This document shows, in pieces, positions 1,700-28,830 of a stretch of 32,000 nucleotides of DNA. The notes beneath the pieces are model-generated. The model searched no databases. It saw only the letters and a list, made by a program, of their open reading frames with translations, and was not told where the DNA came from. Location of the stretch: contig CP064962.1 of NCBI GenBank assembly GCA_016699145.1, positions 420,001 through 452,000 on the forward strand, written 5' to 3'. Both the position numbers and the translations under genes were made by a program. Position 1 is the stretch's first letter. Each line of letters starts with the position of its first letter. Source of the DNA: Candidatus Saccharimonadota bacterium. Lineage in GTDB: Bacteria > Patescibacteriota > Gracilibacteria > UBA1369 > 2-02-FULL-48-14.

Positions 1700-4078
1700 A
1701 TGAAGAAAAAAATCATTCTACTGCTCGCTTCCCTCAAAATTGTGATCTCTATTTTAAGTTTTTCTGCTCTCACTCAAGCGGAAAGCACTTTTTCAGATCT
1801 GGACTCCGAAGACCCCAGCCTCATCGCCATCGAAACCTTGGAAGACAACGGCGTGCTCCAAGGCTATCCAGATGGATCTTTTCGCTCCACCGACACCATC
1901 AATCGCGCTGAATTCATCAAAATGGTCGCAGAAGCTCAAGAGGACGACTTCAATGAATCCAACTGTTTCCCCGATGTGACAAGCGACTGGTACGCAAAAT
2001 ACGTCTGCTATGCCAAAACCGAAGGCTGGGTAGAAGGCTACGAAGATGGCTTGTTCCGACCTGCAAATCCCATCAATTTTGCCGAAGCCAGTAAAATCTT
2101 GGTCCGAGCCTTTGAACTCGAAGAAGACCCCACTCTCACCCCCTGGTACCGACCTCATGCCGAGGCTTTAGAAGACCTCGCAGCCATTCCCCCTTCTATC
2201 GGAGATTTTGAAAAAGAACTGATGCGCGGCGAAATGGCCGAAATGGTGTGGAGACTCAGCGAAGAAGAATACGAACTCGACTCCTTGACCTACGAAGATC
2301 TGGAAGGAAATTTAATCGCGCTGAACTCTTGTGAAGAACTGGAGGCACTTTTCCTCTCTGAACCCAGGGATTATTACTACACAGGCTACCCCGAGGAGGG
2401 GGATGCCGCCGATGTCAGTGCGACCCCCTCGGCTCCCACGGACTATTCCAGCACCAATGTGCAAGTGGAAGGCGTGGATGAGTTCGACATCATCAAAAAT
2501 GACGAGGAATACCTCTATACTTTGAAAGACAATCAGGTTCACATCCTAGACCTCTACCCCGCCGAAGCGATGAACACGGTGGCAACCCTCACCTTTGACG
2601 ATCTCTCTTTCACTCCCAGTCAAATGACGCTCAGTGAAAACCGCTTGGTGGTGGTGGGCAGTGAATACGATTACGACGGCACTTCTTTTCACAGCAATCG
2701 AACCGGAGTCTACATTTACGATGTCACCGATCCCTCTGAACCTTCTTTGCTGCGAGACCTGCATGTGGACGGTTATTATGAAAACGCTCGTCGCATTGAA
2801 GATGAGCTCTACTTGATCCTGAACAAAAACGCAGGCATGTACTGGGGCGACTACGACACCATGCCAACTCAAATTGCTGCCGAAGAGGTCTTGCCTCACC
2901 TCACCGATTCCCTCACTGGAGTGAGCCAAGAAATTGCTCCTTGTGAGGCCATTCGTTATATGCCTCGCACCACTCGCCTCAGCTATGTGATCACCCTGGC
3001 CATCCCTCTTGTTGAAGAAGATCCCGTGGATGCGGAAGTGTTCATTGGTTCCAGCGACAACCTTTACGTTTCCAACCAAAACATCTACCTCAGCAGAAGC
3101 ACCTATTCTTCTCCCAGCGACTATTACTACGACGCCTCCACAAGCAAGACTTTGATCCATCGAATCGCTTTGGATGAGGGCCAGATTGAGTACACAAGCA
3201 GTGGAAAAATTTCCGGCACGTTTTTGAATCAATTCAGCATGGACGAACATGAGGGCTATTTGCGAGTGGCCAGCCAAGTCTCTTCTGTCCAAGGCTCCCA
3301 AGGCTTGAGCAGTCGCCTCACGATTTTGGACGAAAATATGAATGCAGTGAGCAGCATCGCCAACCTGGCTCCCGGGGAAACCTTGCACGCCGCTCGCTTC
3401 ATGGGAGACCGCGGCTATCTAGTGACTTTCGAAAAAGTGGATCCTCTCTTTGCCTTTGACCTGTCAGACCCCCGCAACCCCGAGCTTTTGGGTGAATTGA
3501 AAATCCCAGGTTACAGCGATTATTTACATCCTTACGGGGACCATTATTTGATTGGATTTGGGAAAGACGTCACCAACGCCAGCGCCGAGCAGGAAGCCTT
3601 GCGTGAACTCAATTTCTCTTGGTATCAAGGCTTAAAAGTGGCTTTGTTTGATGTGGAGGATGTGAGCAACCCTCAGCAACTCTACAGTCTAGGCATCGGC
3701 GATCGCGGCACGGACTCCGAACTTTTATACGACCACAAAGCTCTGCTCTTCGATCCAATCAGCGGCCAATTGAGCTTCCCTGTGACTTTGGCACAGCACA
3801 CTGAGGAAAATCCTGACTCCAATGAATTCGGAGAAACAGCGTTCCAAGGGGCTTATTTCTACAGCATCGATCCTGAAAATGGCTTCCTTTATGAAGGCCG
3901 CGCCACCCATTACGAAGACGGCGCATTCGAAGACGGCTCTTATTACGCAAGCCGATCCGAAGAAAACTACATCAATCGCATCATTTACATTGGCGACACT
4001 TTCTACACCCTTTCCGAAGGCAAAGTGCGCGCCCTGAGCCGCGAAAGCTTAGAAGAGGTGGGAGAGGTGAGTTTGTAA
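1700..4078 (+). CDS. Secreted SLH-domain protein with a C-terminal beta-propeller domain (Beta_propel/PF09826-like)
   Basis: Signal peptide MKKKIILLLASLKIVISILSFSALTQA. Two SLH repeats (FSDLD..GVLQGYPDGSFRSTDTINRAEF; FPDVTSDWYAKYV..GWVEGYEDGLFRPANPINFAE). The motif TNVQVEGVDEFDIIKNDEEYLY is typical of the bacterial beta-propeller family. Confidence 0.8.
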   Translation: MKKKIILLLASLKIVISILSFSALTQAESTFSDLDSEDPSLIAIETLEDNGVLQGYPDGSFRSTDTINRAEFIKMVAEAQEDDFNESNCFPDVTSDWYAKYVCYAKTEGWVEGYEDGLFRPANPINFAEASKILVRAFELEEDPTLTPWYRPHAEALEDLAAIPPSIGDFEKELMRGEMAEMVWRLSEEEYELDSLTYEDLEGNLIALNSCEELEALFLSEPRDYYYTGYPEEGDAADVSATPSAPTDYSSTNVQVEGVDEFDIIKNDEEYLYTLKDNQVHILDLYPAEAMNTVATLTFDDLSFTPSQMTLSENRLVVVGSEYDYDGTSFHSNRTGVYIYDVTDPSEPSLLRDLHVDGYYENARRIEDELYLILNKNAGMYWGDYDTMPTQIAAEEVLPHLTDSLTGVSQEIAPCEAIRYMPRTTRLSYVITLAIPLVEEDPVDAEVFIGSSDNLYVSNQNIYLSRSTYSSPSDYYYDASTSKTLIHRIALDEGQIEYTSSGKISGTFLNQFSMDEHEGYLRVASQVSSVQGSQGLSSRLTILDENMNAVSSIANLAPGETLHAARFMGDRGYLVTFEKVDPLFAFDLSDPRNPELLGELKIPGYSDYLHPYGDHYLIGFGKDVTNASAEQEALRELNFSWYQGLKVALFDVEDVSNPQQLYSLGIGDRGTDSELLYDHKALLFDPISGQLSFPVTLAQHTEENPDSNEFGETAFQGAYFYSIDPENGFLYEGRATHYEDGAFEDGSYYASRSEENYINRIIYIGDTFYTLSEGKVRALSRESLEEVGEVSL

Positions 4079-4381: not shown

Positions 4382-4443
4382 ATCCCTATAAAGGTCAAAT
4401 CGTGATACCTTTCCTGACTCTCTAGGAACCCAATCGGCAGAAA

Positions 4444-4993
4444 ATGAACCTCCCCGAGCTTACGCTCGGGGTTTCAGCCTAGTTCAAGCTGCGCTTGGCC
4501 CGCATCTTCTTCGCCCTGTTGTTGGATATACTTTCGAATGACCTCCTCGTTAATCCCAACTGTGGAGGCAAAGTAACCTGCCGACCAAATACTTCTCGTC
4601 CCCCAGTACACTTTTCTAAGAAACGGAAACTTTATGTTCAACTCACGAGCTGTGTTGGCTTTTATTATTCTCACCACCTCTCCCACTGCTATTTGTGGAG
4701 GTATGGAAATTAAAATATGTACATGGTCTAAATCCGTGTTTACCTCTTTCACCACCAGTTCCGGATAGTACTTCGGAATATCCTTCATCACTTCCTGCAG
4801 AAAAGCCAACACACCTTCGTTGAATATCTTCCGACGGTATTTGGTCGGCCAAACTAAGTGATAGTCACAGATGAAAACTGCGTGTGAGCTTTTTCGTAGC
4901 TTCTTCATGCCTCCACTTTACACCACCACGAAGATGCGGGCACCCACTACATCCCTCGGGCTTACGCCCGGGGAACTACGTCAGTTGATTAGA
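4444..4993 (-). mobile_element. IS200/IS605-family insertion sequence, copy B (tnpA only, about 548-550 bp)
   Basis: Identical to 6300..6849 at an offset of 1856. Subterminal hairpins: CCCCGAGC-TTAC-GCTCGGGG at 4452..4471 and CCCTCGGGC-TTAC-GCCCGGGG with a bulged T at 4953..4973. Encodes a Y1 HUH transposase. The outermost 1-2 nt on the left are ambiguous. Confidence 0.9.
4474..4908 (-). CDS. tnpA: IS200/IS605-family Y1 (HUH) transposase TnpA
   Basis: 144 aa. Has the HUH motif (DHVHILISIPP) and the C-terminal catalytic Tyr context (RSIWSAGYFASTVG). N-terminus YHLVWPTKYRR is typical of the family. Confidence 0.92.
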   Translation of the reverse strand: MKKLRKSSHAVFICDYHLVWPTKYRRKIFNEGVLAFLQEVMKDIPKYYPELVVKEVNTDLDHVHILISIPPQIAVGEVVRIIKANTARELNIKFPFLRKVYWGTRSIWSAGYFASTVGINEEVIRKYIQQQGEEDAGQAQLELG

Positions 4994-5395
4994 AGTAGGA
5001 CAGTTTGGCGTATGCTCTAAACCAATAGGGAAGCGTAATCCAGAAGCAGAAGTTTGAAAACTCAAAAGGTCTGCTTTAAGTATACCTCTACCTTGTAAAG
5101 AATCTGCTAAAGTACGACGCACTGCCAACACTTCTCCCGCTACTCCTAGGCCACCTGATGTTAATGCACGCAGTACCTCCGTTTTACCAGTCGATTCTAT
5201 TCGATCCAATTCAGTCAAAAAAGCTGTCAAGGCTTCTGGATCAACCGAAGCGACACCTTTTCCTATTTTCAAAATACCAGTGGAATCGTCAAGAGAAGCA
5301 GCTTGTAATTTGTGTAACCACAGCGGAAGAGCAGTGCCTGCTTGAGTATAAATAGCGTGGACCCCTTCATTGGCTGTTGATATGATTTCAGACAT
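4994..5395 (-). CDS. Hypothetical protein with its 3' end disrupted by IS200 copy B. The likely ATG start is at 5395; the track ORF starts at TTG 5461.
   Basis: ORF 4976..5461 ends in the IS-encoded SNQLT*. If a 548-nt element is removed, the frame closes 7 codons later (..PNCPT-IFCRLGS*), so the insertion is probably near the native C-terminus. No family recognised. Confidence 0.5.
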
Positions 5396-5481
5396 TAATA
5401 AAATGGATGATAAGGTAAAAGAAAAAGAGTATAAACCTTTAAATTGAAATGTCAATGTCAAGAAAGTTCTAGCTTCAGCCT

Positions 5482-5503
5482 TAACCGCTTTCAGAAGCGG
5501 TTA
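5482..5503 (-). terminator. Perfect 9-bp hairpin (TAACCGCTT-TCAG-AAGCGGTTA) just downstream of the ATP-grasp gene stop
   Basis: Read directly from the sequence. There is no clear U-tract on the minus strand, so intrinsic-terminator function is uncertain. Confidence 0.3.
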
Positions 5504-6299
5504 TTACTATTTATGGATAGGTTCTAAATCAAAAAGTGGAGACCTAAGGCCTAAAACCTGAAGTTGTTCTATATTTGATCCAAGCGCCTCAGGTTGATCA
5601 AAAAGGACACCGCCATTCAACCAAACAGCCCCCTTTTGAGGAGAACAAGAAACAAGATTCAAAACCTGGGCAGGGTCTCCAAAACGAGCAACCGTAGCAA
5701 ATCGGTCCACAAACTCAGTCCAATCTCCTCTAAAGGCCCCACTGAAACACAAAAGAGATTTGCTACCAAACGAACCTTCATTCGATTGAAAAGTCTGAGC
5801 CATCGTGGCCGTCATTCGACAATTAAAATCTATAAAAAAGAAGTTGTCCTCTGCATCAATCAAAACATCCACCCCTCCCACTCCCAACCATCCTTTTTCT
5901 TTCAATTTAGGAAGAACATGCGTAAGCAAAACAGATTGAATCTGAGATAAAACCCCAGAAGATTCAGCCTCATTTCTAACAATCCCTCCTAAGTATTCTC
6001 CACTAGGAGCTGTTAACATAAATAGAGGAGTGGTGTAGAGTGAAGTTACTCTAACCCTAACGCCATGTACCAGATGCTAACGGATGAACAGTTCAAACTG
6101 ATCCAGCCTTATTTTCCAAAGCCCAGAAAGCCTGAAAAGATTCCACTGAAACGTTGCATGGATGCCATTTGTTATGTACTTAAAACAGGGTGCGCATGGA
6201 GACAAATGCCCTACGATTACAGAGAAAAAGAGAATGACTGGCACACGATTTATACAAGATACAAACGGTGGAGCGAATCTGGACTTTTTGGACAAATGC

Positions 6300-6849
6300 A
6301 TGAACCTCCCCGAGCTTACGCTCGGGGTTTCAGCCTAGTTCAAGCTGCGCTTGGCCCGCATCTTCTTCGCCCTGTTGTTGGATATACTTTCGAATGACCT
6401 CCTCGTTAATCCCAACTGTGGAGGCAAAGTAACCTGCCGACCAAATACTTCTCGTCCCCCAGTACACTTTTCTAAGAAACGGAAACTTTATGTTCAACTC
6501 ACGAGCTGTGTTGGCTTTTATTATTCTCACCACCTCTCCCACTGCTATTTGTGGAGGTATGGAAATTAAAATATGTACATGGTCTAAATCCGTGTTTACC
6601 TCTTTCACCACCAGTTCCGGATAGTACTTCGGAATATCCTTCATCACTTCCTGCAGAAAAGCCAACACACCTTCGTTGAATATCTTCCGACGGTATTTGG
6701 TCGGCCAAACTAAGTGATAGTCACAGATGAAAACTGCGTGTGAGCTTTTTCGTAGCTTCTTCATGCCTCCACTTTACACCACCACGAAGATGCGGGCACC
6801 CACTACATCCCTCGGGCTTACGCCCGGGGAACTACGTCAGTTGATTAGA
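6300..6849 (-). mobile_element. IS200/IS605-family insertion sequence, copy C, inserted inside the IS5-family transposase gene
   Basis: Identical to copy B across the element. Hairpins at 6308..6327 and 6809..6829. Confidence 0.9.
6330..6764 (-). CDS. tnpA: IS200/IS605-family Y1 (HUH) transposase TnpA (copy C)
   Basis: The 144-aa translation is identical to that of 4474..4908. Confidence 0.92.
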   Translation of the reverse strand: MKKLRKSSHAVFICDYHLVWPTKYRRKIFNEGVLAFLQEVMKDIPKYYPELVVKEVNTDLDHVHILISIPPQIAVGEVVRIIKANTARELNIKFPFLRKVYWGTRSIWSAGYFASTVGINEEVIRKYIQQQGEEDAGQAQLELG

Positions 6850-6939
6850 GCACTTGAAGTAGCAGATGTACTTCAAGTGCGAATAGCTTTCCTGGACAGT
6901 ACAACAAATAGAGCGCACCACAGTGCAGCGGGAGCCATG

Positions 6940-6947
6940 AAAAAAAG
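6940..6947 (+). other. A7G slippery heptamer: probable programmed -1 ribosomal frameshift site joining IS5 OrfA to OrfB
   Basis: The sequence is AAAAAAAG. The 0 frame ends 5 codons later (..MKKRGHKR*). The -1 frame is open from 6912 and reads ..KKGPQALGRSRGGYTTKIH, the conserved IS5-family junction. Confidence 0.6.
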
Positions 6948-8203
6948 GGGCCACAAGCGTTAGGCCGAAGTAGAGGTGGGTACACTACAAAAATTCACAT
7001 GATTGCTGGAGATCCAGATCATGGGATGCACTTTGTTTTAACAGGTGGTGAAGTGAGCGATGTGAAAGTTGGAAAACAAATTTTGAGAGATTATTCGTTT
7101 CCAAAAACAGTAGATCATTTGGCTATGGACAAAGGTTATTCATGCTACAAAGTTCTGGAGCTGTGCAAAGAAAAAGGCATAACTCCAGTCGTTCCTCCAA
7201 AGGCAAAAATGAAATTTCCGTGGGAATACAACAAGAACATTTATGCCTACCGCAACGAGATTGAACGCCTATTTCACCGAATGAAAAATCACAGAAGAAT
7301 TTCAACTCGCTATGACAAATTAGACCTGATGTATGCCTCCTTTATCTCCCTCTGCCTTGTGGCACTTTTACTCAAAGTCTTATGTTAACAGCTCCTAGGG
7401 CCTGTTTTTTCTTCTGAATAACCGAAGAAACCCATAGTCCCATCAGGGTGAATAAAAAACTTAACATCAAACTCTTTTTGTTTATCTACATATTCTTGAA
7501 CAACAATCGTACAATCTAAAGTAGAAAACTTAGCCTGTGCCTCAGTGAAATCATGTGGACCTCTACAAATCCTCACGCCATCACCCCTCCAGAAGAAGTG
7601 AGTTTTATGACACACGGATATTCAAAACGATGAGGAGCTGCTTGAGCAAAAGCAGAACCATTCTCATAACGAGCCATTTCTCTAATACGATATTCAGAAG
7701 GAACCAACTCTTCTAAATTTTTCTTGTCATTCAAATGCACCGTGACTTCAGGTTTAACCATATATTTATTCGCAAGACGAGGGTCCAAAAAAGGTTGAGC
7801 CATTACTAAACGACCATCTGGGGCATACCTAGCCAAAGCCTGGATAAGAATCTCATTACGTCGAGAAGGGTCCCTTACAGAATCAAGAGCCTGCGGAAGG
7901 ATAAGCTGTTGGTTTGGGCTTACTAAAGGAACTCCAAAATTTCCTGTCAAAGTCTCATAAACACCATTCTTTACAGAATTTGAATAAACGACAACCTTCA
8001 CGCCAGGTCCTGCACATACCATAGGTCGGCCAGCGACACACTCCTCATCTTCAGGTGAAGATTCATTTAAAAAATGAGAATCCCAACCAAAGGGAAATCC
8101 ATAAAAATACACAGTCTCTTTTGGGAAGACACGACCAAGGTGGGAAGGTTGTTTCATAACAATGATAATTTACAACATAATTTATATCTAGTCAACGCTC
8201 GCC

Positions 8204-8854
8204 CTAAGAAATCAACCCAATAATTAAAGGTTGGACTCCCAACACCGCTTTAAAAGTAAATTTAAGACCATAAGCAATCAAAATATAAGATCCTACTCGC
8301 ATCAGTTTTTTAAGCATCCACTGATGAAAAATATGCCGCACTATAAAGGTCAAACCAGCAATTCCAAAAGAAGCGAGTACACCACCCAAAGCCACGTTTG
8401 CAGAAAACCCATAAGGACTGATCTCATGCGCATGAGCACTGTACAAGCTGCCTACAACGACCAATGAAAAAACAATGGCCATAGGGTTAACCAAACACAT
8501 GAGTCCACCCTTTATAAAATCCGAATCAAAAAAACGCAACTTATGACGATGCATGTGCTGCAAACTACGTTTATGGGTGTGATCGTTCAAACTGTGATAT
8601 CCCATGCTCGTGAGCATATAAGCCGCCAAACACCACATGAGGGTTTGAACCCATGGGATTTGAATGAATTGAGCGGCACCTGTAGTGCCAAGCATCAAAT
8701 AACAAGCATCCACCAAAGTCGCTCCTAAAATAACCTGAGCTTGAAAGAAAAACCCTCGCCTAGGGTTGAGCCCCTCACGAATACCATAAAGAGTGATGGG
8801 CCCTATGATGAAACCCTGACTGAGTCCGAATAAAAATGCCTCCGGGAACAACAT
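8204..8854 (-). CDS. LysE/RhtB-family amino-acid (small-molecule) exporter
   Basis: 216 aa with about 6 TM segments. N-terminus FLFGLSQGFIIGPITLYGIREGL is typical of LysE-type translocators. Confidence 0.65.
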   Translation of the reverse strand: MLFPEAFLFGLSQGFIIGPITLYGIREGLNPRRGFFFQAQVILGATLVDACYLMLGTTGAAQFIQIPWVQTLMWCLAAYMLTSMGYHSLNDHTHKRSLQHMHRHKLRFFDSDFIKGGLMCLVNPMAIVFSLVVVGSLYSAHAHEISPYGFSANVALGGVLASFGIAGLTFIVRHIFHQWMLKKLMRVGSYILIAYGLKFTFKAVLGVQPLIIGLIS

Positions 8855-8908
8855 GTATTTTTGTTATCCCCTAAGTATACAGAATTACAGGAGAAAATTC
8901 AAGATTGT

Positions 8909-10099
8909 CTAGACCTCCTTGGGCTTGGTCCATTCAAAGATAAAGTGCTTGTCATACACCCCCTCTCCACCGCTGGATTTCCAGTGATAAGGCTGACGGA
9001 TTACTTTCACTTTTACTCCCAATTCTGCTTCAATATGCTTTCGAATCTGTTTCGCATCAGAATAAGGATGTTTTCCTTCAGTAACACGATTCTCAGTAGG
9101 GGTGTACACAATGTGCTGCAAAGGATCAGGAAGCTGCTCATCATCTTCCCCTGTATTGGGGAGCAAACACCCTAAGACAGCTTTTCCTCCAGGAACCAAG
9201 AACGCATTCATATTACGAATGAGCTGAGTTGGATCTGCCACACGATCAAGCACCAGGTTAGCAAGCACAATTCCAAATTGACTATTCAAAGCCTCTCCAA
9301 CTTGCCTGCGAAGTTCTGAGGTTTCAGCATCAATGGCACCCACTGCAATGTTTTGGGTTTCAGCTGCATTGCGTAAAGCAAACGTAGTACTACCATCGAT
9401 CCCTAAAGAACGTAGTCCATTATTGTCCACCAAGGTGTCCCACTCCGCTAGTTTCTGAGCAGCATTCCCACAACCAAGATCCAACATACGACGATTTTCA
9501 GGAGGAAGTTCACCTAAAAAACGTTCCGCAAGAAATCGGTAAAAGCTGGCATCGGAATTGTAGGTGTTTTCACGCCCTTCGAGAAAATAACGAAGAGCCC
9601 CTGCAATACGAGCCACCCCCGCTTCATTGTGACTCTTTGCATCGTAAAAATCCAACATGCGAGCATACTGGCCTCCTACTTCTCGCAAATGCTCAGGATC
9701 TTTCAAATGCTCTCCTATAAGCTCTCCCATCTGCCCTTCAGGAAGCTGAATGACCGGATTCCTGTCCCTAAGGTAAGCAATCATGGCTCCCACTCCCCCC
9801 TTGCGAATCTCAGCAAACTCTTCACGAACTCCTGTCCGAGCTTGTCGCATCAAATGACGTGCAAGTGCTCGATAAAAACTGGTTTCTTCACCAGAGTCCT
9901 TTAAGAAAGCGGCAAGCACGTCAGACAAAAGAGCTTCTCCATCTTCTTTCCCCTTACTTGCATCAATGCACTCTGAAAGAAGGACTGAACCCCCTTCAGA
10001 CGTTTCAACTATCGGGTTCTTAGTCATCAAATACTTTGCAATAGCATCCACGTCATGCGAACCTCGTCCAGATTCATTTTCTTCGAAAGGAAAACCCAT
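8909..10099 (-). CDS. Two-domain protein: unknown N-terminal domain (about 190 aa) plus a C-terminal class I SAM-dependent methyltransferase
   Basis: Motif I MLDLGCGNAA, motif II-like FGIVLANLVLDRVADP, and LVPGGKAVLG. It lacks the N6/N4 (D/N-PP-Y/F) and C5 (PCQ) DNA methyltransferase motifs. Confidence 0.65.
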   Translation of the reverse strand: MGFPFEENESGRGSHDVDAIAKYLMTKNPIVETSEGGSVLLSECIDASKGKEDGEALLSDVLAAFLKDSGEETSFYRALARHLMRQARTGVREEFAEIRKGGVGAMIAYLRDRNPVIQLPEGQMGELIGEHLKDPEHLREVGGQYARMLDFYDAKSHNEAGVARIAGALRYFLEGRENTYNSDASFYRFLAERFLGELPPENRRMLDLGCGNAAQKLAEWDTLVDNNGLRSLGIDGSTTFALRNAAETQNIAVGAIDAETSELRRQVGEALNSQFGIVLANLVLDRVADPTQLIRNMNAFLVPGGKAVLGCLLPNTGEDDEQLPDPLQHIVYTPTENRVTEGKHPYSDAKQIRKHIEAELGVKVKVIRQPYHWKSSGGEGVYDKHFIFEWTKPKEV

Positions 10100-10164
10100 A
10101 CTTTCTATGCTTTTACGATTAAGTCATCATAATATAAAATCGGACGAAAGTCAATAGACTCCCC

Positions 10165-11727
10165 TTACATTTCTCCTGAAGGAATACGCTTTTTTAGATC
10201 CAGATAGTCCATAATAGCTTCTGGCGTCCATTTCAAAAATTCTGGATCCCGTTCCACTTCGGTATAGAGCACTTTATAAATATCTACCACCATAGGGTTC
10301 ATCATCTCATAAAAAGTCACCTGCCTTGATAACTGAATAAATTCATCTAAAGCAAATTTATCATCATAAACCGCCATATCAATTCCAGTAGCAGGCAGCA
10401 GATCACCGGACTGAGTTTCTAAGAAAGAAACCACTGTCCCTCCCCCCGACATCTCCTTGGTCTGCAAGGGCTCAATGGCCCTAGCTTCTGCTTCTTCATC
10501 CACTTCTTTCAAAAGTCGCATCCAAGCCTGCTTGGTCTGAGTCAAATCACTCACTTGAGAAAAACCTCCCAAGCACTTATAACCATAATAACAAGCCGCC
10601 ATCACATAACAGAGCATCATTGAAGGGAAAATTTTCTTCATTTGTAGAGCCTTCGTAATCTCTTCCGGTGTATAGTCATACTGGTGCTCCCCATCCGGAC
10701 AAACCAGTTTGCCATCTTGAAGCACAAAACGAATGCGATGATTCTTACTATCCAGGCCCCAAAAGAAGTAGGTTCCTAAGTCTTTTTGCAGATCAAAAGC
10801 CCCTGGAATACCATTGAAGTACTGACGAGCGAGTTCCTGGTATTTTTTATCAAAGAGCAGCTTATACAAAAGCGAGTCAGGCTTGTTAAGATGAAATTTC
10901 ACCAAAAGCTCAGTCATCACCGTTTCAATGTCCAAATAAATCAGATTAGGAACGGCAGTTCCTTCCTTCTTAAAGAGTTCAGGCCAGAGTTTATAGTTGA
11001 TGATCGTGATTTGAGTACTGAGATCTGGAGCCGCTAGAACCTGTTCATCCAAAAAGAAATGATCAAGTAAACCCTTCACTCCTTCGGCTTTCTTAGTAAG
11101 CACTAGACCTTCTTGAACCTTACGAGCCAAAGCCTCCTTAGCGCGAAACACATCCTCTTTATTGAAAGCACGCGCATTGTAGACCACGGACATCTTCTCT
11201 TTATCAGGCAAAACAGGGAGGCGAATGAAATCTTCCGAACCTCGATTATTACCATGAAACACAATCCCACGGGGATAAGCGGAGGGGTTGTTAAGAGAAA
11301 CACTGGCAAAAGAAAGCACCATCATATACTTAAGCACTGGATCCGTTAACTCATGATAAGGCAAAACGGAGATGATATTGGAATTGATCCAGTAAGGGTG
11401 AGTGATGGGGCCATGGTGATCTGTTGTAGAGAGTACGTGATACTTGGCCAACTGAGCAGCAACTTCTTGAGCGACCGTAGGATTCAATCGTTGTTTCAAA
11501 AGGTCCTCCACTATCGAAATAAACTCCTTACGACGCTCATCTAAAGCCGGCATGGGATTGATATCCAAAAAACCGCGCGTGTACTCATAGAGACTCGAGC
11601 GGTTGCCGTGCTTTTCCATGATCTCCTTGAGAATCGGCGTACGTTCCCAAATGGCTTCCCATATTGGAAGTAGAGGGTCTGGGGTAGATGATTTAGAAGG
11701 GTCCGATTTGGAAGGTTCAAAGCTCAT
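10165..11727 (-). CDS. Hypothetical protein, 520 aa, no recognisable domain
   Basis: Long uninterrupted ORF with an ATG start, on the same strand and closely spaced with the flanking operon genes. I could not identify any motifs. Confidence 0.6.
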   Translation of the reverse strand: MSFEPSKSDPSKSSTPDPLLPIWEAIWERTPILKEIMEKHGNRSSLYEYTRGFLDINPMPALDERRKEFISIVEDLLKQRLNPTVAQEVAAQLAKYHVLSTTDHHGPITHPYWINSNIISVLPYHELTDPVLKYMMVLSFASVSLNNPSAYPRGIVFHGNNRGSEDFIRLPVLPDKEKMSVVYNARAFNKEDVFRAKEALARKVQEGLVLTKKAEGVKGLLDHFFLDEQVLAAPDLSTQITIINYKLWPELFKKEGTAVPNLIYLDIETVMTELLVKFHLNKPDSLLYKLLFDKKYQELARQYFNGIPGAFDLQKDLGTYFFWGLDSKNHRIRFVLQDGKLVCPDGEHQYDYTPEEITKALQMKKIFPSMMLCYVMAACYYGYKCLGGFSQVSDLTQTKQAWMRLLKEVDEEAEARAIEPLQTKEMSGGGTVVSFLETQSGDLLPATGIDMAVYDDKFALDEFIQLSRQVTFYEMMNPMVVDIYKVLYTEVERDPEFLKWTPEAIMDYLDLKKRIPSGEM

Positions 11728-11788
11728 AAAGGCTTTTGGGGTAGTATATTAAAATTCAACAAAAAAACAAGAGCCTAACTTTTTGAGG

Positions 11789-12514
11789 TCAGACTCTTAA
11801 AGAATATGGCTTAGCCCCCATCCCAGAACAGGGCTTCAATCCAAGCATTCGTAGATCAGTTGTAAGATCCAAAGAAGTGCCCAAACGTCCATGCACCAGT
11901 TTTGGCTCAGCAAGCTCCCCACTTCGATACAGTACAGCCGAGTCAGGTTCATCTTTCCAAGAATGCGCATAGCGAAGAGCTGAACGCTCATAGGCCCAAC
12001 GAGCCCGCCTGCGAGAAGCCTCTAAAGCTGGCTTGGTAGCATCCATAGCCTCTGAGACTAAATTGCGATGTCTAGAAGAAAATGCATGCACTAAACCTAA
12101 ATTTGATAAAGCAGCGTTGGAACGAACAAAAGCCGACTTCCAAGAACGAAGAGCATCAGCATAGTCTTCTAGTGCAGCAAAATGAGTAGGATCCTTGCGC
12201 CGAGCATCCAAAAGACGCAAACAGGTCACATAGGAAGCACCCTGCTGATCTAAATCTGGATGATGAAAAGGACGATCCACATGCATAGGAAAAAATTGAT
12301 CATAAATGGAATCCATACCTTCGACTATTTTCGTTTTACTGAAGACAAGAAGTTCAAAGCGTCGCAGCCAGTCCACAACTTCTCGAGAATTTTCCCGTAA
12401 AAAAGCGTCTACGCACAATGGTTCATCTGTACTGACTCGAAAACCTAACCCTTCTGGGAAATCTTCTCGATCTGATACAGGAACCAAAATAGACTCAGAA
12501 TATACCATCGTCAC
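11789..12514 (-). CDS. Hypothetical protein, about 240 aa (GTG at 12514 or ATG at 12508)
   Basis: ORF track entry on the same strand, 61 bp upstream of the 520-aa gene. No family recognised. Confidence 0.5.
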   Translation of the reverse strand: MTMVYSESILVPVSDREDFPEGLGFRVSTDEPLCVDAFLRENSREVVDWLRRFELLVFSKTKIVEGMDSIYDQFFPMHVDRPFHHPDLDQQGASYVTCLRLLDARRKDPTHFAALEDYADALRSWKSAFVRSNAALSNLGLVHAFSSRHRNLVSEAMDATKPALEASRRRARWAYERSALRYAHSWKDEPDSAVLYRSGELAEPKLVHGRLGTSLDLTTDLRMLGLKPCSGMGAKPYSLRV

Positions 12515-12611
12515 ATAAATAAAATGTAGCAGGATATCATAAACTATTTTAGTAATAACGCAAGGCGGACTGGCTCTGGTCTTTTTTTGACTTAGCCTCT
12601 AAACTAACCCC

Positions 12612-13001
12612 ATGATCCCTCTTTTGCCAAAAGCCATTGCTCAAAAGTACGGCATCGATTTTGCCATCGCCTTCGGCTCTCAAGTCAGCGGACAAACTCA
12701 TGCCGAAAGCGATCTGGACCTCGCGGTTCACAGTTCAAAGAATCCAAGCCTTAAAGAAGAACTCCACCTACTCAGCGAGCTCAGTGCTTTTTATTCAAAG
12801 GAGGTGGACTTGTGCTGGATCAATGAAAATGTCAGCGCCCTACTCTACGGAGAATGGGCAAAAAACAGTCAACTGCTCTACGGAAACGAAGAAGACTATC
12901 AAGTTTTCTGCATTGAAGCGCTCAAGAAATTCCTAGACTTTGAACCCTATTTCAAACTCCAGGAGCAAGCCTTACAAGAACGTTTACGTCAACTCAGCTA
13001 A
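12612..13001 (+). CDS. mntA: MNT-type nucleotidyltransferase, antitoxin of a HEPN/MNT (type VII-like) toxin-antitoxin pair
   Basis: The motif GSQVSGQTHAESDLDLAV matches the minimal nucleotidyltransferase signature G-S-x(n)-D-x-D. It lies directly upstream of a DUF86/HEPN gene. Confidence 0.75.
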   Translation: MIPLLPKAIAQKYGIDFAIAFGSQVSGQTHAESDLDLAVHSSKNPSLKEELHLLSELSAFYSKEVDLCWINENVSALLYGEWAKNSQLLYGNEEDYQVFCIEALKKFLDFEPYFKLQEQALQERLRQLS

Positions 13002-13006
13002 CACCT

Positions 13007-13432
13007 ATGCCAAATAAAAGTCTCATTCAAAGAAAAATTCAAGAAATTCTGAAGCAGCTTCTTTTTTTAGATGAATTGACTCGCGAAAATGCAATCGCCA
13101 TTTTAGACGATGAAAAAACCTTGTACCTGGCAGAACGAGTGATGGAAAGATTGATCGGCGCAGCCATCGACATCAACATGCATCTGCTTAAAGATTTGAA
13201 ACAAGAAATCCCAGCAAACTATCGAGATTCTTTTATTGGACTCTCCAAAATCAATGTTTTAAATGAAGCTTTCGCAAAACAAATCGCACACTCCATAGGT
13301 TTGCGCAACATTCTCATTCATGAATACCAACAGTTGATCAATGAAAAATTCTTTGAAGCCATGAAAGAAGCAAAAACCGATTATAAGACTTACACTGAAG
13401 CCATTCTTCACTTCCTCTCTCAACATCCGTGA
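13007..13432 (+). CDS. hepT: HEPN-domain (DUF86, HepT-like) toxin
   Basis: The R-x4-H-x-Y HEPN motif is present as RNILIHEY. The protein is 141 aa and is paired with MNT 5 nt upstream. Confidence 0.75.
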   Translation: MPNKSLIQRKIQEILKQLLFLDELTRENAIAILDDEKTLYLAERVMERLIGAAIDINMHLLKDLKQEIPANYRDSFIGLSKINVLNEAFAKQIAHSIGLRNILIHEYQQLINEKFFEAMKEAKTDYKTYTEAILHFLSQHP

Positions 13433-14505
13433 ACTTCCCGACCCGTCACTCCCGCTTTTGCGAACTCTTCCCGGGCGAAAAACCCTTTCGTTGGAAGCAA
13501 ATCGAAGAGGGGCTTTTTCAGGTTCAAAACAAGGGCTGGAAGGATCTCACCGGCCTCCCAAAAATCCTGCGAGAAACGCTAGAAAAAGAAGTCCCCTGGA
13601 TGAGTGGCGAGGCTCAAACCGTGCTCTGCTCCAGTCGCGGCGACACCTACAAAGTGCTGATCAAACTCGCGGATGGAAACCTCGTTGAAACCGTTCTGAT
13701 GGAAAATATGCGCGATCAATGGACCATCTGCGTCTCTTCCCAAGTCGGTTGTGCCATGCGTTGCGGCTTCTGTGCCACGGGTAAAATGGGCCTCACTCGC
13801 AGTCTCACGGCAGACGAAATCATGGATCAGTACCGGTTTTGGAAAAGCTTCCTCACCGAACATCCTCGCCTGCCTCAGCGCATCTCGAATGTGGTTTTTA
13901 TGGGCATGGGCGAACCGCTGGCCAATTATGAAAATGTAAAAAAAGCCATCCACACATGGCTGGCCTACACCGACCTCGGCCCCACCCACATCACCGTTTC
14001 CACCGTGGGCATCTTGCCTGTGCTCGAACAAATCCTCACCGACCCCGATTGGCCGGACACTCGCATCGCCATTTCGCTGCACAGCGCCGTACCCGAGACC
14101 CGCAAAGAAATCGTGCCCAGCTCTTTTGAAGGATTCATTCCCAAACTGCACGACTGGATCCGCAAGTACCAAAAAGTACACGGCAATCGCCGTCACCACC
14201 TGACCTTCGAGTACGTGATGCTCAAAAATGTGAACGACACCGAGCAGCACGCACGCGTGCTGGCCGACTTTGCTGCCGAGCTCGGAGACATCAAAATAAA
14301 CCTGATTCCCTACAATTTCACAGACATGGGCGTGGAACGCAGCAGCAACAACCAAATCCATCGCTTCAAAGACATCGTCGAAAAGGCAGGCGTCGAAATC
14401 ACCGTGCGCAAAACCATGGGTGACGACATCGCAGCAGCCTGCGGGCAACTCATTACTCTTGGCAGGAAGAATCTTTGTGATATTCTTCCGTCCGAAAATA
14501 TTTAA
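13429..14505 (+). CDS. rlmN: 23S rRNA/tRNA adenine-C2 methyltransferase RlmN (radical SAM)
   Basis: Motifs CVSSQVGCAMRCGFCATG (CxxxCxxC radical SAM cluster), GMGEPLANY, and a C-terminal AACGQL. The GTG start overlaps the hepT stop (GTGA). Confidence 0.9.
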   Translation: MNFPTRHSRFCELFPGEKPFRWKQIEEGLFQVQNKGWKDLTGLPKILRETLEKEVPWMSGEAQTVLCSSRGDTYKVLIKLADGNLVETVLMENMRDQWTICVSSQVGCAMRCGFCATGKMGLTRSLTADEIMDQYRFWKSFLTEHPRLPQRISNVVFMGMGEPLANYENVKKAIHTWLAYTDLGPTHITVSTVGILPVLEQILTDPDWPDTRIAISLHSAVPETRKEIVPSSFEGFIPKLHDWIRKYQKVHGNRRHHLTFEYVMLKNVNDTEQHARVLADFAAELGDIKINLIPYNFTDMGVERSSNNQIHRFKDIVEKAGVEITVRKTMGDDIAAACGQLITLGRKNLCDILPSENI

Positions 14506-14523
14506 CCGTTAACCCACACCCAA

Positions 14524-14817
14524 ATGGACCGTACCGATTACATTGAAGGACAACGCGAAAAACTCGAAGAATTTCGTGACCGACTCGACGAACTGGAAGA
14601 ACTGCTTGCAAGCAGCGATGAAGACGAAAATGATTCCGAAATGGAAACCATCAATGCACTGCGTCGCGACCTCGAGTCTTTGGACATGAGCCTCGACGAA
14701 ATCGAACAGGCAGACGATGAAAGTTTCGAAGAAGTACAAGCGGCTTACGAAGCCGAACGTGAAGAATTTGAAGAAGCCTTTGCCGAAGCCGAAGAAATGG
14801 TGGAAGCCCAGGATTAG
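14524..14817 (+). CDS. Highly acidic coiled-coil-like small protein (97 aa)
   Basis: ORF with very high Glu/Asp content (LEEFRDRLDELEELLASSDEDENDSEME..). No family recognised. Confidence 0.5.
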   Translation: MDRTDYIEGQREKLEEFRDRLDELEELLASSDEDENDSEMETINALRRDLESLDMSLDEIEQADDESFEEVQAAYEAEREEFEEAFAEAEEMVEAQD

Positions 14818-14849
14818 AAGCGTATACTTTGCTCACCTAACCACGCCTC

Positions 14850-15251
14850 ATGACGCTCAGCCTGCTCGCCCTGTTCATGCTCCCCATTTGCCTTGCCCTG
14901 GTGCTTTCTCCAAAAAACATGCACAAGGTCATTAAGGATTGGGCCAATTCACCCGCCCTTCTGTTCTTCAGCTCTCTTTTTCTCTTTTTATTTGCTCTCA
15001 TCATCGTGATCAGCACCGGCTTCAATCTACGATTTTGGCCACAAAGTGGCACAGCGGACTGGGCCTGGAATTCTCAAGTGATCCTCTCTTGGATCGCAGT
15101 ACTCATGGGGATCAAAGGTCTCGCAGCTTTTTTCCCAAAGCTCGTCAAATGGAGAATGCACTTCGTCACCGAAGAACTCCTCCCCCTATTCGGCTTTATG
15201 GGACTTCTATTTTGGCTGGGAATGGTGTATCTTGAAACCCAAGTCTTTTAG
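14850..15251 (+). CDS. Small integral membrane protein (4 predicted TM helices)
   Basis: Hydrophobic segments read in the translation. No family recognised. Confidence 0.5.
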   Translation: MTLSLLALFMLPICLALVLSPKNMHKVIKDWANSPALLFFSSLFLFLFALIIVISTGFNLRFWPQSGTADWAWNSQVILSWIAVLMGIKGLAAFFPKLVKWRMHFVTEELLPLFGFMGLLFWLGMVYLETQVF

Positions 15252-20413: not shown

Positions 20414-20548
20414 GGACGTAGCTTAGCCGAAAAGGTCTCAACCCACAAATTCAAGCCATAACCCCCCCCTCAGATCACCCAATCTGGAACACATTTCCTA
20501 CGCGGAAAACAATTCAAAAACCGTCAATTGTTTTCAATAACATTTGCT

Positions 20549-20577
20549 TTGACGGCCTTTCATATTTTCGATAACTT
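20549..20577 (+). promoter_or_regulatory. Putative promoter of nrdJ (TTGACG, 17-nt spacer, TAACTT)
   Basis: Hexamers read at 20549..20554 and 20572..20577. The -10 element is weak. Confidence 0.25.
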
Positions 20578-20597
20578 GTGGACTACCGAAGTAAGAC

Positions 20598-20613
20598 GCA
20601 CAACATATTGTGC
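20598..20613. promoter_or_regulatory. Putative NrdR box 1 (GCACAACATATTGTGC)
   Basis: Near-perfect 16-bp palindrome matching the NrdR operator consensus acaCwAtATaTwGtgt at 11 of the 12 core positions. It lies about 95 nt upstream of the nrdJ start. Confidence 0.55.
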
Positions 20614-20629
20614 CATTCTCCCCCTTCGA

Positions 20630-20645
20630 CCCCAATATACACTTC
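20630..20645. promoter_or_regulatory. Putative NrdR box 2, a weaker half-site-quality match (CCCCAATATACACTTC)
   Basis: The left half and centre (CAATATA) match the consensus; the right half is poor. The centre-to-centre distance to box 1 is 32 bp, the spacing typical of tandem NrdR boxes. Confidence 0.35.
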
Positions 20646-20707
20646 CCACGGACTCCACCTCCTTCCGCGCGGTTTTAGTTCTTTATTTCCCCATTTTTCC
20701 CACGCGT

Positions 20708-22621
20708 ATGGCTCAATCCATCACTTTACCCGATCCAGTAGCAGCTCAAAACGAAGAACACAGCCAAAAATCAGAGATTCGTCGCCCCCAAGAAGGCAAA
20801 TCCAACTCTTCCAAGGGAATTCGCATGAAACGTCGCTTCACCCAAGCCGGCCTCGACGCCTTTGACATGATGGACTACGACCTGCGCGAATCCCGCATCA
20901 AGGAGCCAAGTGGTAAAATCGTCTTCGAAATGACCAAGGTGGAAGTGCCCACAAGCTGGTCCCAACTCGCAACCGACATCATCGCTCAAAAGTACTTCCG
21001 AAAACGTGGAGTGCCCGGAACCGAACACGAAGTCAGCGCCAAACAAACCGTGCACCGCATCGCACACACCGTGCGCACTTTTGGAATGGAACACGGCTAT
21101 TTTGCCAGCGAAGAAGATGCCGAAAGCTTCGAGCAAGAACTCAAATACATGCTCATCACCCAACGTGGGGCGTTCAACTCCCCCGTATGGTTCAATTGCG
21201 GACTTTTCCATGAATACGGAGTGACGGGAGATGGAGGCAACTACGCCTGGGATTTTGCCAAAGGCGCCGTCGTAGAAATCGACAACGCCTACGCTCGCCC
21301 TCAATGCAGTGCTTGCTTCATCCAAAAAGTGGACGATTCCCTCATGGGCATTTTTGACCTCGCCAAAAACGAAGCCAAACTCTTCAAATATGGGTCTGGA
21401 ACCGGTTCCAACTTCTCAAATCTCCGCTCCAAGTACGAAATCCTCTCGGGAGGAGGCATCTCTTCCGGACTCATGTCCTTCCTCGAAGTTTTAGACCGTG
21501 GAGCCGGAGCCATTAAATCTGGAGGAACCACTCGTCGCGCCGCCAAAATGGTGGTGGTGGATGTGGATCACCCCGAAATCAAAGACTTCGTAAACTGGAA
21601 AGTAGAATCCGAAAAAAAGGCTCGCGCCCTCATCGCCGCCGGTTACGACAGCGACTGGCGTGGAGAAGCTTACCACACCGTTTCTGGACAAAACTCCAAC
21701 AACTCCGTGCGTGTGACCGATGAATTCATGCACGCCGTAGAAAAGAATGAAAAATTCTGGACCAAACGCCGCACCGACGGAAAACCTCATGAAGAAATGG
21801 ATGCGCAAGCGCTTTTCGATGAAATCTGTAAGGCCGCTTGGGGCTGTGCCGATCCCGGACTTCAATTCGACACCACCATCAACGACTGGCACACCAGCCC
21901 TGTGAGCGGACGCATCAACGGCTCCAACCCCTGCTCCGAATACATGTTCCTCGACGACACAGCCTGCAACCTCGCCTCACTCAACTTGGTGAAGTTCATG
22001 AATGAAGACGGCAGTTTCGACATCGCCGCCTATCGCCACGCCGTGGAAATTTTCTTCCTCGCTCAAGAAATCCTCGTAGACCTCTCTTCTTACCCCACCG
22101 ATCGCATCGCCCAAAACAGCCACGACTTTCGTCCGCTGGGACTCGGCTACGCCAATCTTGGTACCCTACTCATGACCAGCGGCATCGCCTACGACAGCGA
22201 CGAAGGACGCGCCATCGCGGCCGCCCTCACCGCTATTATGCACTGCCACGCGAACGTCATGTCCGCTGAAATCGCCAAGGTGGTGGGTCCCTTTGCCGCC
22301 TACGAAAAGAACCGCGAACCCATGCTCAAAGTGATGCGCATGCATGAAGAAGCCGCCAAAGCCATCAACAAAAAGCTCTGCCCTGCAGACCTCTACGAAG
22401 CCGCTGTGGAAGACGCAGCCCTCGCCATTGAAAAAGGAGAAAAATACGGCTACCGCAACGCGCAAGCCACCGTGCTCGCCCCCACCGGAACCATCGGGCT
22501 TTTGATGGACTGCGACACCACTGGTGTGGAACCTGAATTCTCCATCGTAAAATGGAAAAAACTCGCCGGAGGAGGACACTTCAAGATCATCAACAAATCC
22601 ATCCCCAGTGCCCTCGAATGA
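20708..22621 (+). CDS. nrdJ: Class II (adenosylcobalamin-dependent) ribonucleotide reductase, N-terminal and catalytic part
   Basis: Motifs WSQLATDIIAQKYFRK, SACFIQ, GSGTGSNFSNLR, SNPCSEY, CNLASLNL. I chose the ATG at 20708 (MAQSITLP..) because the track ORF from 20528 covers the CT-rich leader. Confidence 0.85.
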   Translation: MAQSITLPDPVAAQNEEHSQKSEIRRPQEGKSNSSKGIRMKRRFTQAGLDAFDMMDYDLRESRIKEPSGKIVFEMTKVEVPTSWSQLATDIIAQKYFRKRGVPGTEHEVSAKQTVHRIAHTVRTFGMEHGYFASEEDAESFEQELKYMLITQRGAFNSPVWFNCGLFHEYGVTGDGGNYAWDFAKGAVVEIDNAYARPQCSACFIQKVDDSLMGIFDLAKNEAKLFKYGSGTGSNFSNLRSKYEILSGGGISSGLMSFLEVLDRGAGAIKSGGTTRRAAKMVVVDVDHPEIKDFVNWKVESEKKARALIAAGYDSDWRGEAYHTVSGQNSNNSVRVTDEFMHAVEKNEKFWTKRRTDGKPHEEMDAQALFDEICKAAWGCADPGLQFDTTINDWHTSPVSGRINGSNPCSEYMFLDDTACNLASLNLVKFMNEDGSFDIAAYRHAVEIFFLAQEILVDLSSYPTDRIAQNSHDFRPLGLGYANLGTLLMTSGIAYDSDEGRAIAAALTAIMHCHANVMSAEIAKVVGPFAAYEKNREPMLKVMRMHEEAAKAINKKLCPADLYEAAVEDAALAIEKGEKYGYRNAQATVLAPTGTIGLLMDCDTTGVEPEFSIVKWKKLAGGGHFKIINKSIPSALE

Positions 22622-28355: not shown

Positions 28356-28386
28356 GGTATACTTACAAAGATTGAACCCCTACGCC

Positions 28387-28830
28387 ATGGTTCGAAAATT
28401 CCTCGCCACCGCCTTGCTCAGTTTAACTTTGAGCTTCGTGCAACCCGCTATGGTCTCTGCCGAAACCACGAGCAACTTCAATGTGTTTGATGTGTTCAGT
28501 ATCGACGAAGAAGAAGATACAACGACTGGAAAGAGCACCATCAACGGCAGCACCACCATCAGTGATAATATCAAAGATTACGCAAAGGAACACACCGGCG
28601 GCAACGTCCCCATGGCCATCATTATGCGAGCCATCAATGTACTGATGCTGCTCATCGGTACTTTTGCTTTTTTGGTCATTTTTTACAGCGGCGTCTTGCT
28701 GGTCACCGCCAACGGAGATGAAGGAAAATTGGAAAAAGGAAAAGGCATGATTGTGCCCGCCATTTTAGGCTTGGTCTTTGCCTTTTTAGCCTATTACATC
28801 ACCGTCTTTATTCAATCGTTTTTCTACTGA
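28387..28830 (+). CDS. VirB2/TrbC-like (T4SS-pilin-like) secreted TM-hairpin protein, paralog 1
   Basis: Signal peptide MVRKFLATALLSLTLSFVQPAMVSA, then the C-terminal module ..LLIGTFAFLVIFYSGVLLVTANGDEGKLEKGKGMIVPAILGLVFAFLAYYI.. Confidence 0.6.
   Translation: MVRKFLATALLSLTLSFVQPAMVSAETTSNFNVFDVFSIDEEEDTTTGKSTINGSTTISDNIKDYAKEHTGGNVPMAIIMRAINVLMLLIGTFAFLVIFYSGVLLVTANGDEGKLEKGKGMIVPAILGLVFAFLAYYITVFIQSFFY

Follow-up and report, generated by a model that had tools for sequence, protein, structure and literature searches.

Gene clusters of the bacilysin, rhizocticin and dapdiamide type bring together one or more L-amino-acid ligases, tailoring enzymes and an exporter. Here, we describe a locus of similar logic in a reduced genome of the Candidate Phyla Radiation (CPR): five minus-strand genes that run from position 12514 down to 5507 of a 32,000-nt stretch of contig CP064962.1 (positions 420,001 to 452,000 of the forward strand; assembly GCA_016699145.1), referred to as the window throughout. 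The window genome belongs to Candidatus Peregrinibacteria, a Peribacteria-type CPR lineage. Individual proteins of the locus invite comparison with three described enzymes. LdmS of S. aureus (7R8P) is an L-Asp-L-Met ligase whose gene shares an operon with that of an M20D peptidase (PMC9486568). BshC was defined by genetics as the putative cysteine ligase in bacillithiol synthesis: it is required for bacillithiol, GlcN-Mal builds up in mutants, and the reaction itself is still unreconstituted (PMC5790435). NmbA, finally, is a class I S-adenosylmethionine (SAM) methyltransferase that works on the BshC product and has a specialised cap domain (PMC12719100).

How does the locus compare with these systems? 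Its genes encode, in order, a 241-aa protein, a 520-aa protein, a class I SAM methyltransferase, a LysE/RhtB-family translocator and an ATP-grasp ligase. A previous reading of the DNA made without database searches (the sequence-only reading) had recognised in this row the logic of a ligase, a methyltransferase and an exporter. This logic is strengthened, because the ATP-grasp protein is nearest to LdmS and the 520-aa protein has a predicted BshC-like fold. We therefore put forward, as a tentative proposal, that the locus serves ATP-dependent amino-acid ligation, methylation and transport of an amino-acid-derived small molecule. In several related Peribacteria the locus is retained next to rlmN, with varying gene content. 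Clusters of ligases, tailoring enzymes and exporters are known as such; the novelty lies in the CPR setting, in a BshC-like anchor gene found across the lineage and in its set of partners.

Gene content of the locus

All five genes are closely spaced minus-strand open reading frames (ORFs) between 12514 and 5507, as the sequence-only reading had it, with intergenic gaps of 61, 65, 54 and 46 nt in order from the 241-aa gene. In the following list, as in the text below, labels from L003 to L088 denote genomic stretches of relatives retrieved for neighbourhood comparison.

11789 to 12514, minus strand: 241-aa protein of a very rare family (ORF list, homolog searches)
11768 to 11799, minus strand: terminator-like hairpin with a 12-bp stem and a T-run (consensus scan only)
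10165 to 11727, minus strand: 520-aa member of a CPR-wide family, predicted BshC-like fold (homologs, invariant residues, predicted model)
8909 to 10099, minus strand: 396-aa class I SAM methyltransferase (Pfam, NCBIfam)
8204 to 8854, minus strand: 216-aa LysE/RhtB-family translocator (PF01810, NCBIfam)
7399 to 8157, minus strand: N-terminal part of the ATP-grasp ligase gene, with a 1-nt deletion (ORFs, comparison with L007)
6007 to 7394, plus strand: IS5-family insertion sequence (inverted repeats, Pfam/NCBIfam)
6300 to 6853, minus strand: IS200-type element encoding a 144-aa Y1 transposase, nested in the IS5 element (Pfam, repeat comparison)
5507 to 6006, minus strand: C-terminal part of the ATP-grasp ligase gene (reconstruction, LdmS match)

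The NCBI proteins IPG41_02335 (520-aa) and IPG41_02340 (241-aa) are 100% identical to the window proteins; for the 241-aa gene, NCBI places the start at the ATG at 12508, which gives 239 aa.

The 520-aa protein belongs to a CPR-wide family

The sequence-only reading had taken the 520-aa protein for an orphan. This proved wrong: we found at least 207 homologs across the CPR, usually without the partner genes, the best 120 of them at 44–52% identity and a subgroup at 35–39%, in Peregrinibacteria, Magasanikbacteria, Kerfeldbacteria, Gracilibacteria and other Patescibacteria. None of the homologs found carries a Pfam domain, and neither does the window protein at E<=0.01. The window copy is an ordinary member: its mean identity is 46.8%, where the family averages 50.7%, and it keeps 37 of the 37 invariant columns of a 60-sequence alignment. 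No other listed homolog stems from the contig of the window genome, and the gene is probably this genome's sole copy. Typical family members (44–49% identity) are also found on contigs titled Gammaproteobacteria (L048, L055, L064, L065, L067 and L070), and one carrier, L074, is titled Woesearchaeota; these are probably mislabelled CPR bins, but the titles could widen the range of the family.

An AlphaFold model built from the 60-sequence alignment (pLDDT 92.4, pTM 0.91) returned a sole significant Foldseek match in the PDB, namely B. subtilis BshC (4wbd; E 2.4e-5, probability 1.00), over 401 aligned columns at a TM-score of 0.44 and 11% identity, with the next-best match at E>2. At the sequence level, no BshC model was detected at E<=10 in 60 family members, none was matched in NCBIfam, and a PDB profile search with the 520-aa sequence did not recover 4wbd. 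Judging by the predicted model, the protein appears BshC-like in fold only, and we consider it a putative ATP-dependent amino-acid ligase. Neither bshA (GT4) nor bshB (deacetylase) is present among the annotated window genes or among the recurrent neighbours of the 520-aa gene in 80 loci.

An ATP-grasp ligase gene with two lesions

A perfect 19-nt inverted repeat (6003–6021 and 7380–7398) marks the ends of the IS5-family element that splits the ATP-grasp gene, and the outermost 4 nt of each repeat (6003–6006 and 7395–7398) constitute a CTAG target-site duplication. When the element was excised in silico together with one CTAG, the gene was rejoined with a single frameshift left, the loss of one G from a G-run (CCCC on the plus strand, 7584–7587) within the glycine-rich loop, where SSGG(G)DGVRIC of the window aligns with SSGAGDGVRIC of the intact L007 homolog. 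While the IS5 insertion is an unambiguous lesion, the frameshift calls for caution as a possible assembly error: the gene for class II (B12-dependent) ribonucleotide reductase (RNR) in the window is likewise split at a C-run. The RNR is represented by two ORFs in different frames (20528–22621 and 22608–23735) that overlap by 14 nt, their junction lying near a CCCC run, and falls about 38 residues short of the single 1056-aa ORF in L037. This reflects either an assembly indel error or a truly split or damaged essential gene, and homopolymer indel errors in the assembly are possible. A further frameshift, suspected in MetRS where the window ends, was not borne out on inspection.

The IS200 copy nested in the IS5 element matches the copy at 4444–4997 at 100% and 97–99% over two aligned blocks. 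In total, a stretch of 7 kb holds three near-identical IS200-type copies, which indicates recent insertion-sequence (IS) activity in this roughly 1.3-Mb CPR genome.

The reconstructed ATP-grasp protein measures 418–419 aa and matches CPSase_L_D2, RimK and ATP-grasp_3 (PF02786, PF08443 and PF02655) at residues 171–323; domain and glycine-rich loop together place it in the ATP-grasp superfamily. Its best PDB match is 7r8p (E 1.1e-9) and its best NCBIfam match is LdmS (NF047900, E 4.5e-20), yet the score of 71.7 bits compares with an equivalog cutoff of 475 bits. By these matches, it is an enzyme of the L-amino-acid-ligase kind and not an LdmS ortholog.

The claim that this gene is inactivated twice holds as read, the insertion being certain and the frameshift perhaps an assembly artefact. 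The further conclusion that the pathway no longer functions was an overreach: the ORFs of the remaining four genes are unbroken, every invariant residue is retained in the 520-aa copy, one of the two lesions may not be genuine, and L006, L075, L025 and L084 combine genes of the 520-aa, methyltransferase and LysE families with no ATP-grasp gene seen. The visibly broken part of the locus in the window genome is the ATP-grasp branch only.

Methyltransferase, translocator and the 241-aa protein

As for the ATP-grasp protein, Pfam matches back the identities that had been given to the methyltransferase and the LysE protein. The 396-aa protein matches PF13489 with 32.1 bits (cutoff 27) and PF08241 with 25.2 bits (cutoff 21.2) at residues 192–316, and the motif LDLGCGNA is invariant in its family, as befits a class I SAM methyltransferase. 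Upstream of this domain lies a conserved cap (about residues 89–190), preceded by an extra N-terminal stretch of about 65–90 residues that is confined to window-type copies. The family is rare: four other members were found among 5.8 billion proteins, and six are known when the window's own and a distant L075 copy are counted in, while a scan of JGI metagenomes with the family alignment found nothing. PDB matches are generic class I enzymes only. An NmbA-like reading of this methyltransferase was considered and found no support, with no NmbA chain among the PDB matches at E<=1. The 216-aa protein matches PF01810 (E 2.7e-16, 60.1 bits, cutoff 25.6) at residues 16–200, which assigns it to the LysE/RhtB family; the substrate-specific NCBIfam models (LysE, RhtB/C) score far under their cutoffs.

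The 241-aa protein comes close to being the orphan it had been called, although 2 close homologs and about 10 distant relatives exist, the latter from an exhaustive profile search of 1.84 billion representatives. Invariant in this family are H78-x-D80, T110, H184/W186 and H208-G-R. Searches of Pfam and the PDB with the protein gave no match, and its AlphaFold2 model was unusable (pLDDT 37). The HxD...H pattern had raised the idea of a TauD/2-oxoglutarate dioxygenase, which was dropped after hhalign against E. coli TauD returned a probability of 0.1.

Partner genes recur around the 520-aa gene

The neighbourhood of the 520-aa gene was surveyed in 80 genomic loci. Across close relatives, the order 241-aa gene, 520-aa gene, methyltransferase, LysE is kept, as pieced together from L009, where a 241-aa homolog (59% identity to the window protein) is followed by the 520-aa gene (85%), and L006, where the 520-aa gene (78%), the methyltransferase (67%) and LysE (88%) follow each other in window order and orientation. 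The distant methyltransferase homolog in L075 is full-length (hhalign 98.8%, 28% identity over 269 columns), and directly follows, in the same orientation, a 520-aa gene of 44% identity. Altogether, the 520-aa gene lies immediately upstream of the rare methyltransferase in 3 of 4 informative contexts. LysE homologs (56–57%) flank the 520-aa gene divergently in L025, and in L084 a LysE gene (45%) is followed by a D-Ala-D-Ala ligase gene (Ddl) and the 520-aa gene.

Other relatives show the same families in shuffled order. L007 carries an ATP-grasp gene (38%), a convergent gene for a LysA-like pyridoxal-phosphate (PLP) decarboxylase, and a methyltransferase gene (67%) followed by that of an FGase-like amidohydrolase; L008 likewise has the methyltransferase and then the FGase-like gene. 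In L028 and L037, a block next to rlmN comprises genes for a major facilitator superfamily (MFS) transporter, an FGase-like protein, the 520-aa protein, an N-terminally extended methyltransferase of another type, an unknown protein, an M20 peptidase and an LdmS-like ATP-grasp protein, to which L037 alone adds a biopterin-dependent hydroxylase after the methyltransferase. Two proteins of L037 did not withstand comparison with the window families, a 218-aa protein as a member of the 241-aa family and MT372 as a homolog of the window methyltransferase. Of the loci in rlmN context, 5/5 carry at least one partner family beside the 520-aa gene. A remnant of the PLP decarboxylase or of the FGase-like gene was searched for in the window, and none was found.

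Are these genes linked in function, or mere neighbours? According to the main rival explanation, which we consider somewhat unlikely, the 520-aa protein is an envelope-associated housekeeping enzyme and LysE a general efflux valve, the methyltransferase and the ATP-grasp protein are independent of both, and the shared gene order reflects shared ancestry. The wider distribution of the 520-aa family fits this explanation and weighs against our own proposal, with about 70 of the 80 loci devoid of any partner gene. About 12–17 of them show a ThrRS-Lgt-enolase-[520]-DHH-IF-2 context, and the commonest immediate neighbours, next to DHH, IF-2 and enolase, are Ddl (adjacent on the same strand in 5), PBP2 (convergent in 5–6), an LPG_synthase_C gene resembling the MprF C-terminus (immediately downstream in 6) and a gene for an unknown 423-aa protein (in 8). 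Several of the linked examples come from related genomes and are not independent, L006 and L009 being close relatives (520-aa proteins 78–85% identical, rlmN fragment 82%). In 9 of 9 metagenomic ATP-grasp loci, the 520-aa, methyltransferase and LysE genes are absent within 10 kb, and in 6 of these 9 the ATP-grasp gene stands alone with a convergent PLP decarboxylase gene. Conservation of the neighbourhood elsewhere, which the sequence-only reading had named as a check, is partial: incomplete clusters do exist, but the complete five-gene cluster was not found on one contig in any other genome. Nor is a single operon demonstrated, because the gaps measure 46–65 nt, promoter-like sites precede 3 genes and a terminator-like hairpin follows the 241-aa gene, lying between it and the 520-aa gene and overlapping the 241-aa stop codon. 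To the same side of the balance belong the BshC link, which consists of one Foldseek match at low TM-score and identity without sequence-profile support and leads to an enzyme whose own reaction was never reconstituted (PMC5790435), and the 241-aa protein, to which no role can be assigned.

What speaks against mere adjacency is the way in which the families recur. The rare methyltransferase follows the 520-aa gene in two lineages whose 520-aa proteins share 44% and whose methyltransferases share 28% identity, LysE accompanies the 520-aa gene in three lineages with differing arrangements, and the reshuffling of the FGase-like, methyltransferase, ATP-grasp and transporter families in L007, L008, L028 and L037 is a pattern typical of functional linkage.

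If our proposal of a ligation, methylation and transport locus is correct, what might it make? Gene content, lesions, homologies and synteny are observed directly; from the homologies and recurrent contexts we infer enzymatic roles within one shared pathway, a direction of transport and a class of product. The BshC-like 520-aa protein would catalyse the ATP-dependent addition of an amino acid to an amine acceptor, and the LdmS-like ATP-grasp protein would serve as a second amide-bond-forming ligase, giving an amide-linked product, either dipeptide-like or an aminoacylated acceptor and possibly tied to the cell envelope. The rare class I methyltransferase, travelling with the 520-aa gene, would methylate this product, and LysE (or the MFS transporter in relatives) would move the methylated compound across the membrane. 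FGase-like and M20 hydrolases, the PLP decarboxylase and the hydroxylase may be optional accessories in relatives. In the window genome, the IS5-family insertion has knocked out the ATP-grasp branch and spared the 241-aa, 520-aa, methyltransferase and LysE genes. The Ddl, PBP2 and MprF-C-like neighbours of the 520-aa family suggest that the acceptor may be cell-envelope-related. A broader version of this scheme, which we hold to be unlikely, would make the 520-aa family CPR-wide BshC-like ligases that aminoacylate an envelope or small-molecule acceptor, with one Peribacteria lineage having wired in the methyltransferase, LysE or MFS transporter and LdmS-like ligase and exporting a methylated conjugate.

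The survey yielded further observations on these families. A slot defined by genes for PBP2 and an M16 peptidase holds the ATP-grasp and LysA-like decarboxylase genes in L018 (9875–16355) and the 520-aa gene in L083 and L085–L088 (about 10001–15200), so one envelope-related locus may be occupied either by the 520-aa gene or by the ATP-grasp/decarboxylase pair. Between L007 and L018, the ATP-grasp and PLP decarboxylase proteins are 76–77% identical, while the methyltransferase and FGase-like genes occur only in L007 and PBP2 stands there in L018; from this contrast it follows that the methyltransferase/FGase-like pair acts as a small module gained or lost. In the Kerfeldbacteria loci L003 and L004 (L003 6722–9674), the 520-aa gene directly follows that of a pterin-4a-carbinolamine dehydratase, with a P5CR-like reductase also encoded there. 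Homologs of this dehydratase are also present in L052 and L056, and in L037 the gene for the biopterin-dependent aromatic amino-acid hydroxylase (12740–13570) is two genes from the 520-aa gene. A recurring tie of the family to pterin-dependent hydroxylation is possible.

An ancestral position with atypical composition

The sequence-only reading had further interpreted the locus as an acquired island. The following features border or adjoin the five genes:

1 to 129: IS200 copy cut by the window edge (Pfam, repeats)
4444 to 4997, minus strand: IS200-type element at the left edge of the low-GC region (Pfam, repeats)
4976 to 5461, minus strand: 161-aa ORF p161 with a TTG start (ORF list)
12612 to 13432, plus strand: MntA/HepT type VII toxin-antitoxin (TA) pair (NCBIfam)
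13429 to 14505, plus strand: rlmN-like radical-SAM gene, the synteny anchor (relatives' loci)

That the segment is GC-poorer than the housekeeping genes is confirmed. The GC content of 5000–13450 is 43.1%, as compared to 50.7% for the rest of the window; GC content at third codon positions (GC3) is 0.29–0.45 in the cluster genes (0.54 in the ATP-grasp C-terminal fragment) versus 0.51–0.69 in housekeeping genes; and codon-usage distances are 0.21–0.29 versus mostly 0.09–0.15. This atypical composition, which extends across 4976–13432, favours a recently acquired and now decaying foreign island bounded by IS copies and the TA pair, as does the mere presence of IS200 and IS5 copies and MntA/HepT. 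The AT-shift is, moreover, specific to the window genome, the GC3 of the L009 cluster being 0.50–0.59 as compared to 0.52 for its rlmN fragment.

Synteny nevertheless contradicts the island, which we regard as improbable. The rlmN gene, a small ORF, p133, an Fe-S/DUF1858 gene and the RNR gene are found near the 520-aa gene in L025, L028, L032, L037 and L062, at identities to the window of 58–80% (rlmN), mostly 58–79% (Fe-S/DUF1858) and 69–84% (RNR). With L009 included, the locus is thus syntenic in six relatives' stretches rather than absent from the corresponding site. In L009, the rlmN N-terminus (82% identical) abuts the 241-aa gene divergently, with no MntA/HepT in between; the locus therefore existed before the TA pair and the IS elements inserted into it. 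The flanking elements are real, in other words, but they are not island borders. Divergence from L009 is similar for the 520-aa gene (85%) and the flanking rlmN fragment, the near-universal CPR family seems to be represented in this genome by the 520-aa gene alone, judging by the homologs listed, and equivalent genes in L028 also show a GC3 below that of their flanks, albeit a milder depression. The window contains no tRNA, no integrase was seen among its annotated ORFs, and its sole repeats are the IS copies. A megablast search of 5000–13500 against E. coli genomes gave no match, and an enterobacterial (Yersinia-like) origin, which the IS200 copies had suggested, proved wrong. No Rfam elements or tRNAs were detected in 4400–13600. 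The locus occupies its ancestral chromosomal position next to rlmN, and its composition is nonetheless atypical; the AT-shift could stem from relaxed selection on codons, from a local bias in mutation or from replacement of the alleles by those of a lower-GC relative.

Downstream of the ATP-grasp gene, p161 lies on the same strand and has the lowest GC3 of the region (0.27). It gave only a sub-threshold DUF6086 match and no homolog in any retrieved locus, and may belong to the cluster as a further gene or be spurious. Two probable cell-surface proteins are encoded just beyond the low-GC region: a 792-aa protein (1700–4078) that combines SLH domains with a full beta-propeller domain (PF09826, E 1.9e-155) and, next to it, a BNR-repeat protein (506–1675). 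Farther along the window (28330–30418), downstream of a dihydrouridine synthase gene, two T4SS-pilin-like (PF18895) proteins surround an unannotated 265-aa ORF.

Implications

The genomes of CPR bacteria, or Patescibacteria, are tiny, and most of the conserved proteins specific to these lineages lack an assigned function. For one such family, that of the 520-aa protein, the present data supply a fold hypothesis, a set of recurrent partners (Ddl, PBP2, the MprF-C-like protein, the rare methyltransferase and LysE) and a concrete locus with an apparent coupling to amino-acid ligation, methylation and transport. Should the linkage be functional, the locus would encode an envelope modification or a form of metabolite exchange of CPR origin, with a bearing on the interaction between episymbiont and host. 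The broader version of the scheme, if true, would also place a native small-molecule pathway in organisms thought to be nearly without biosynthetic capacity, and offer a second, more tractable handle on the unreconstituted reaction type of BshC. If the linkage is not functional, the data still correct the island view in favour of an ancestral locus with IS and TA insertions.

Comparison with known systems

Among characterised enzymes, LdmS (7R8P/7R8Q) comes out first in both PDB and NCBIfam searches with the reconstructed ATP-grasp protein, and the adjacency of M20-peptidase and ligase genes in L028 and L037 mirrors the hmrA/ldmS operon. The differences are the score far below the equivalog cutoff, the pairing of most relatives' ATP-grasp genes with a LysA-like PLP decarboxylase gene, and the disruption of the window gene. 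With BshC (B. subtilis YllA, 4WBD), the 520-aa protein shares solubility, length (540 versus 520 aa), a structural match that is the sole significant one, and the lack of close sequence relatives of known mechanism. It differs in the low identity and TM-score, the missing profile match and the absence of a bshA/bshB context; in addition, its family is found in the CPR and not in Firmicutes or Chlorobi, and its neighbours are Ddl, PBP2 and MprF-C-like genes, whereas those of BshC are pantothenate genes.

Taken literally, these likenesses would yield a bacillithiol-like thiol pathway, in which the BshC-like protein adds cysteine and the adjacent methyltransferase takes the NmbA role in N-methylation, an explanation that can appeal to BshC as the only significant fold match, to the synthesis of N-methyl-bacillithiol by a dedicated class I methyltransferase, NmbA (PMC12719100), and to the recurring adjacency of 520-aa and methyltransferase genes, but that we judge very improbable, more so even than the island: the window methyltransferase has generic class I PDB matches and no detectable sequence relation to NmbA, no linked homolog of either BshA (GT4) or BshB (deacetylase) occurs in the window, 60 family members searched at E<=10 showed no BshC signal in Pfam, and a literature search gave no link between bacillithiol and the CPR. 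The likeness to NmbA consists in a methyltransferase directly downstream of a BshC-like gene and is one of analogy only, the two enzymes being without detectable sequence similarity.

With clusters of the bacilysin, rhizocticin and dapdiamide type, the window locus would share the logic of a ligase, a tailoring methyltransferase and an exporter, accompanied by variable hydrolases and decarboxylases. It differs from them in its reduced CPR genome, its conserved chromosomal position and its lineage-wide anchor gene, and the likeness shown is one of logic, not of enzyme homology.

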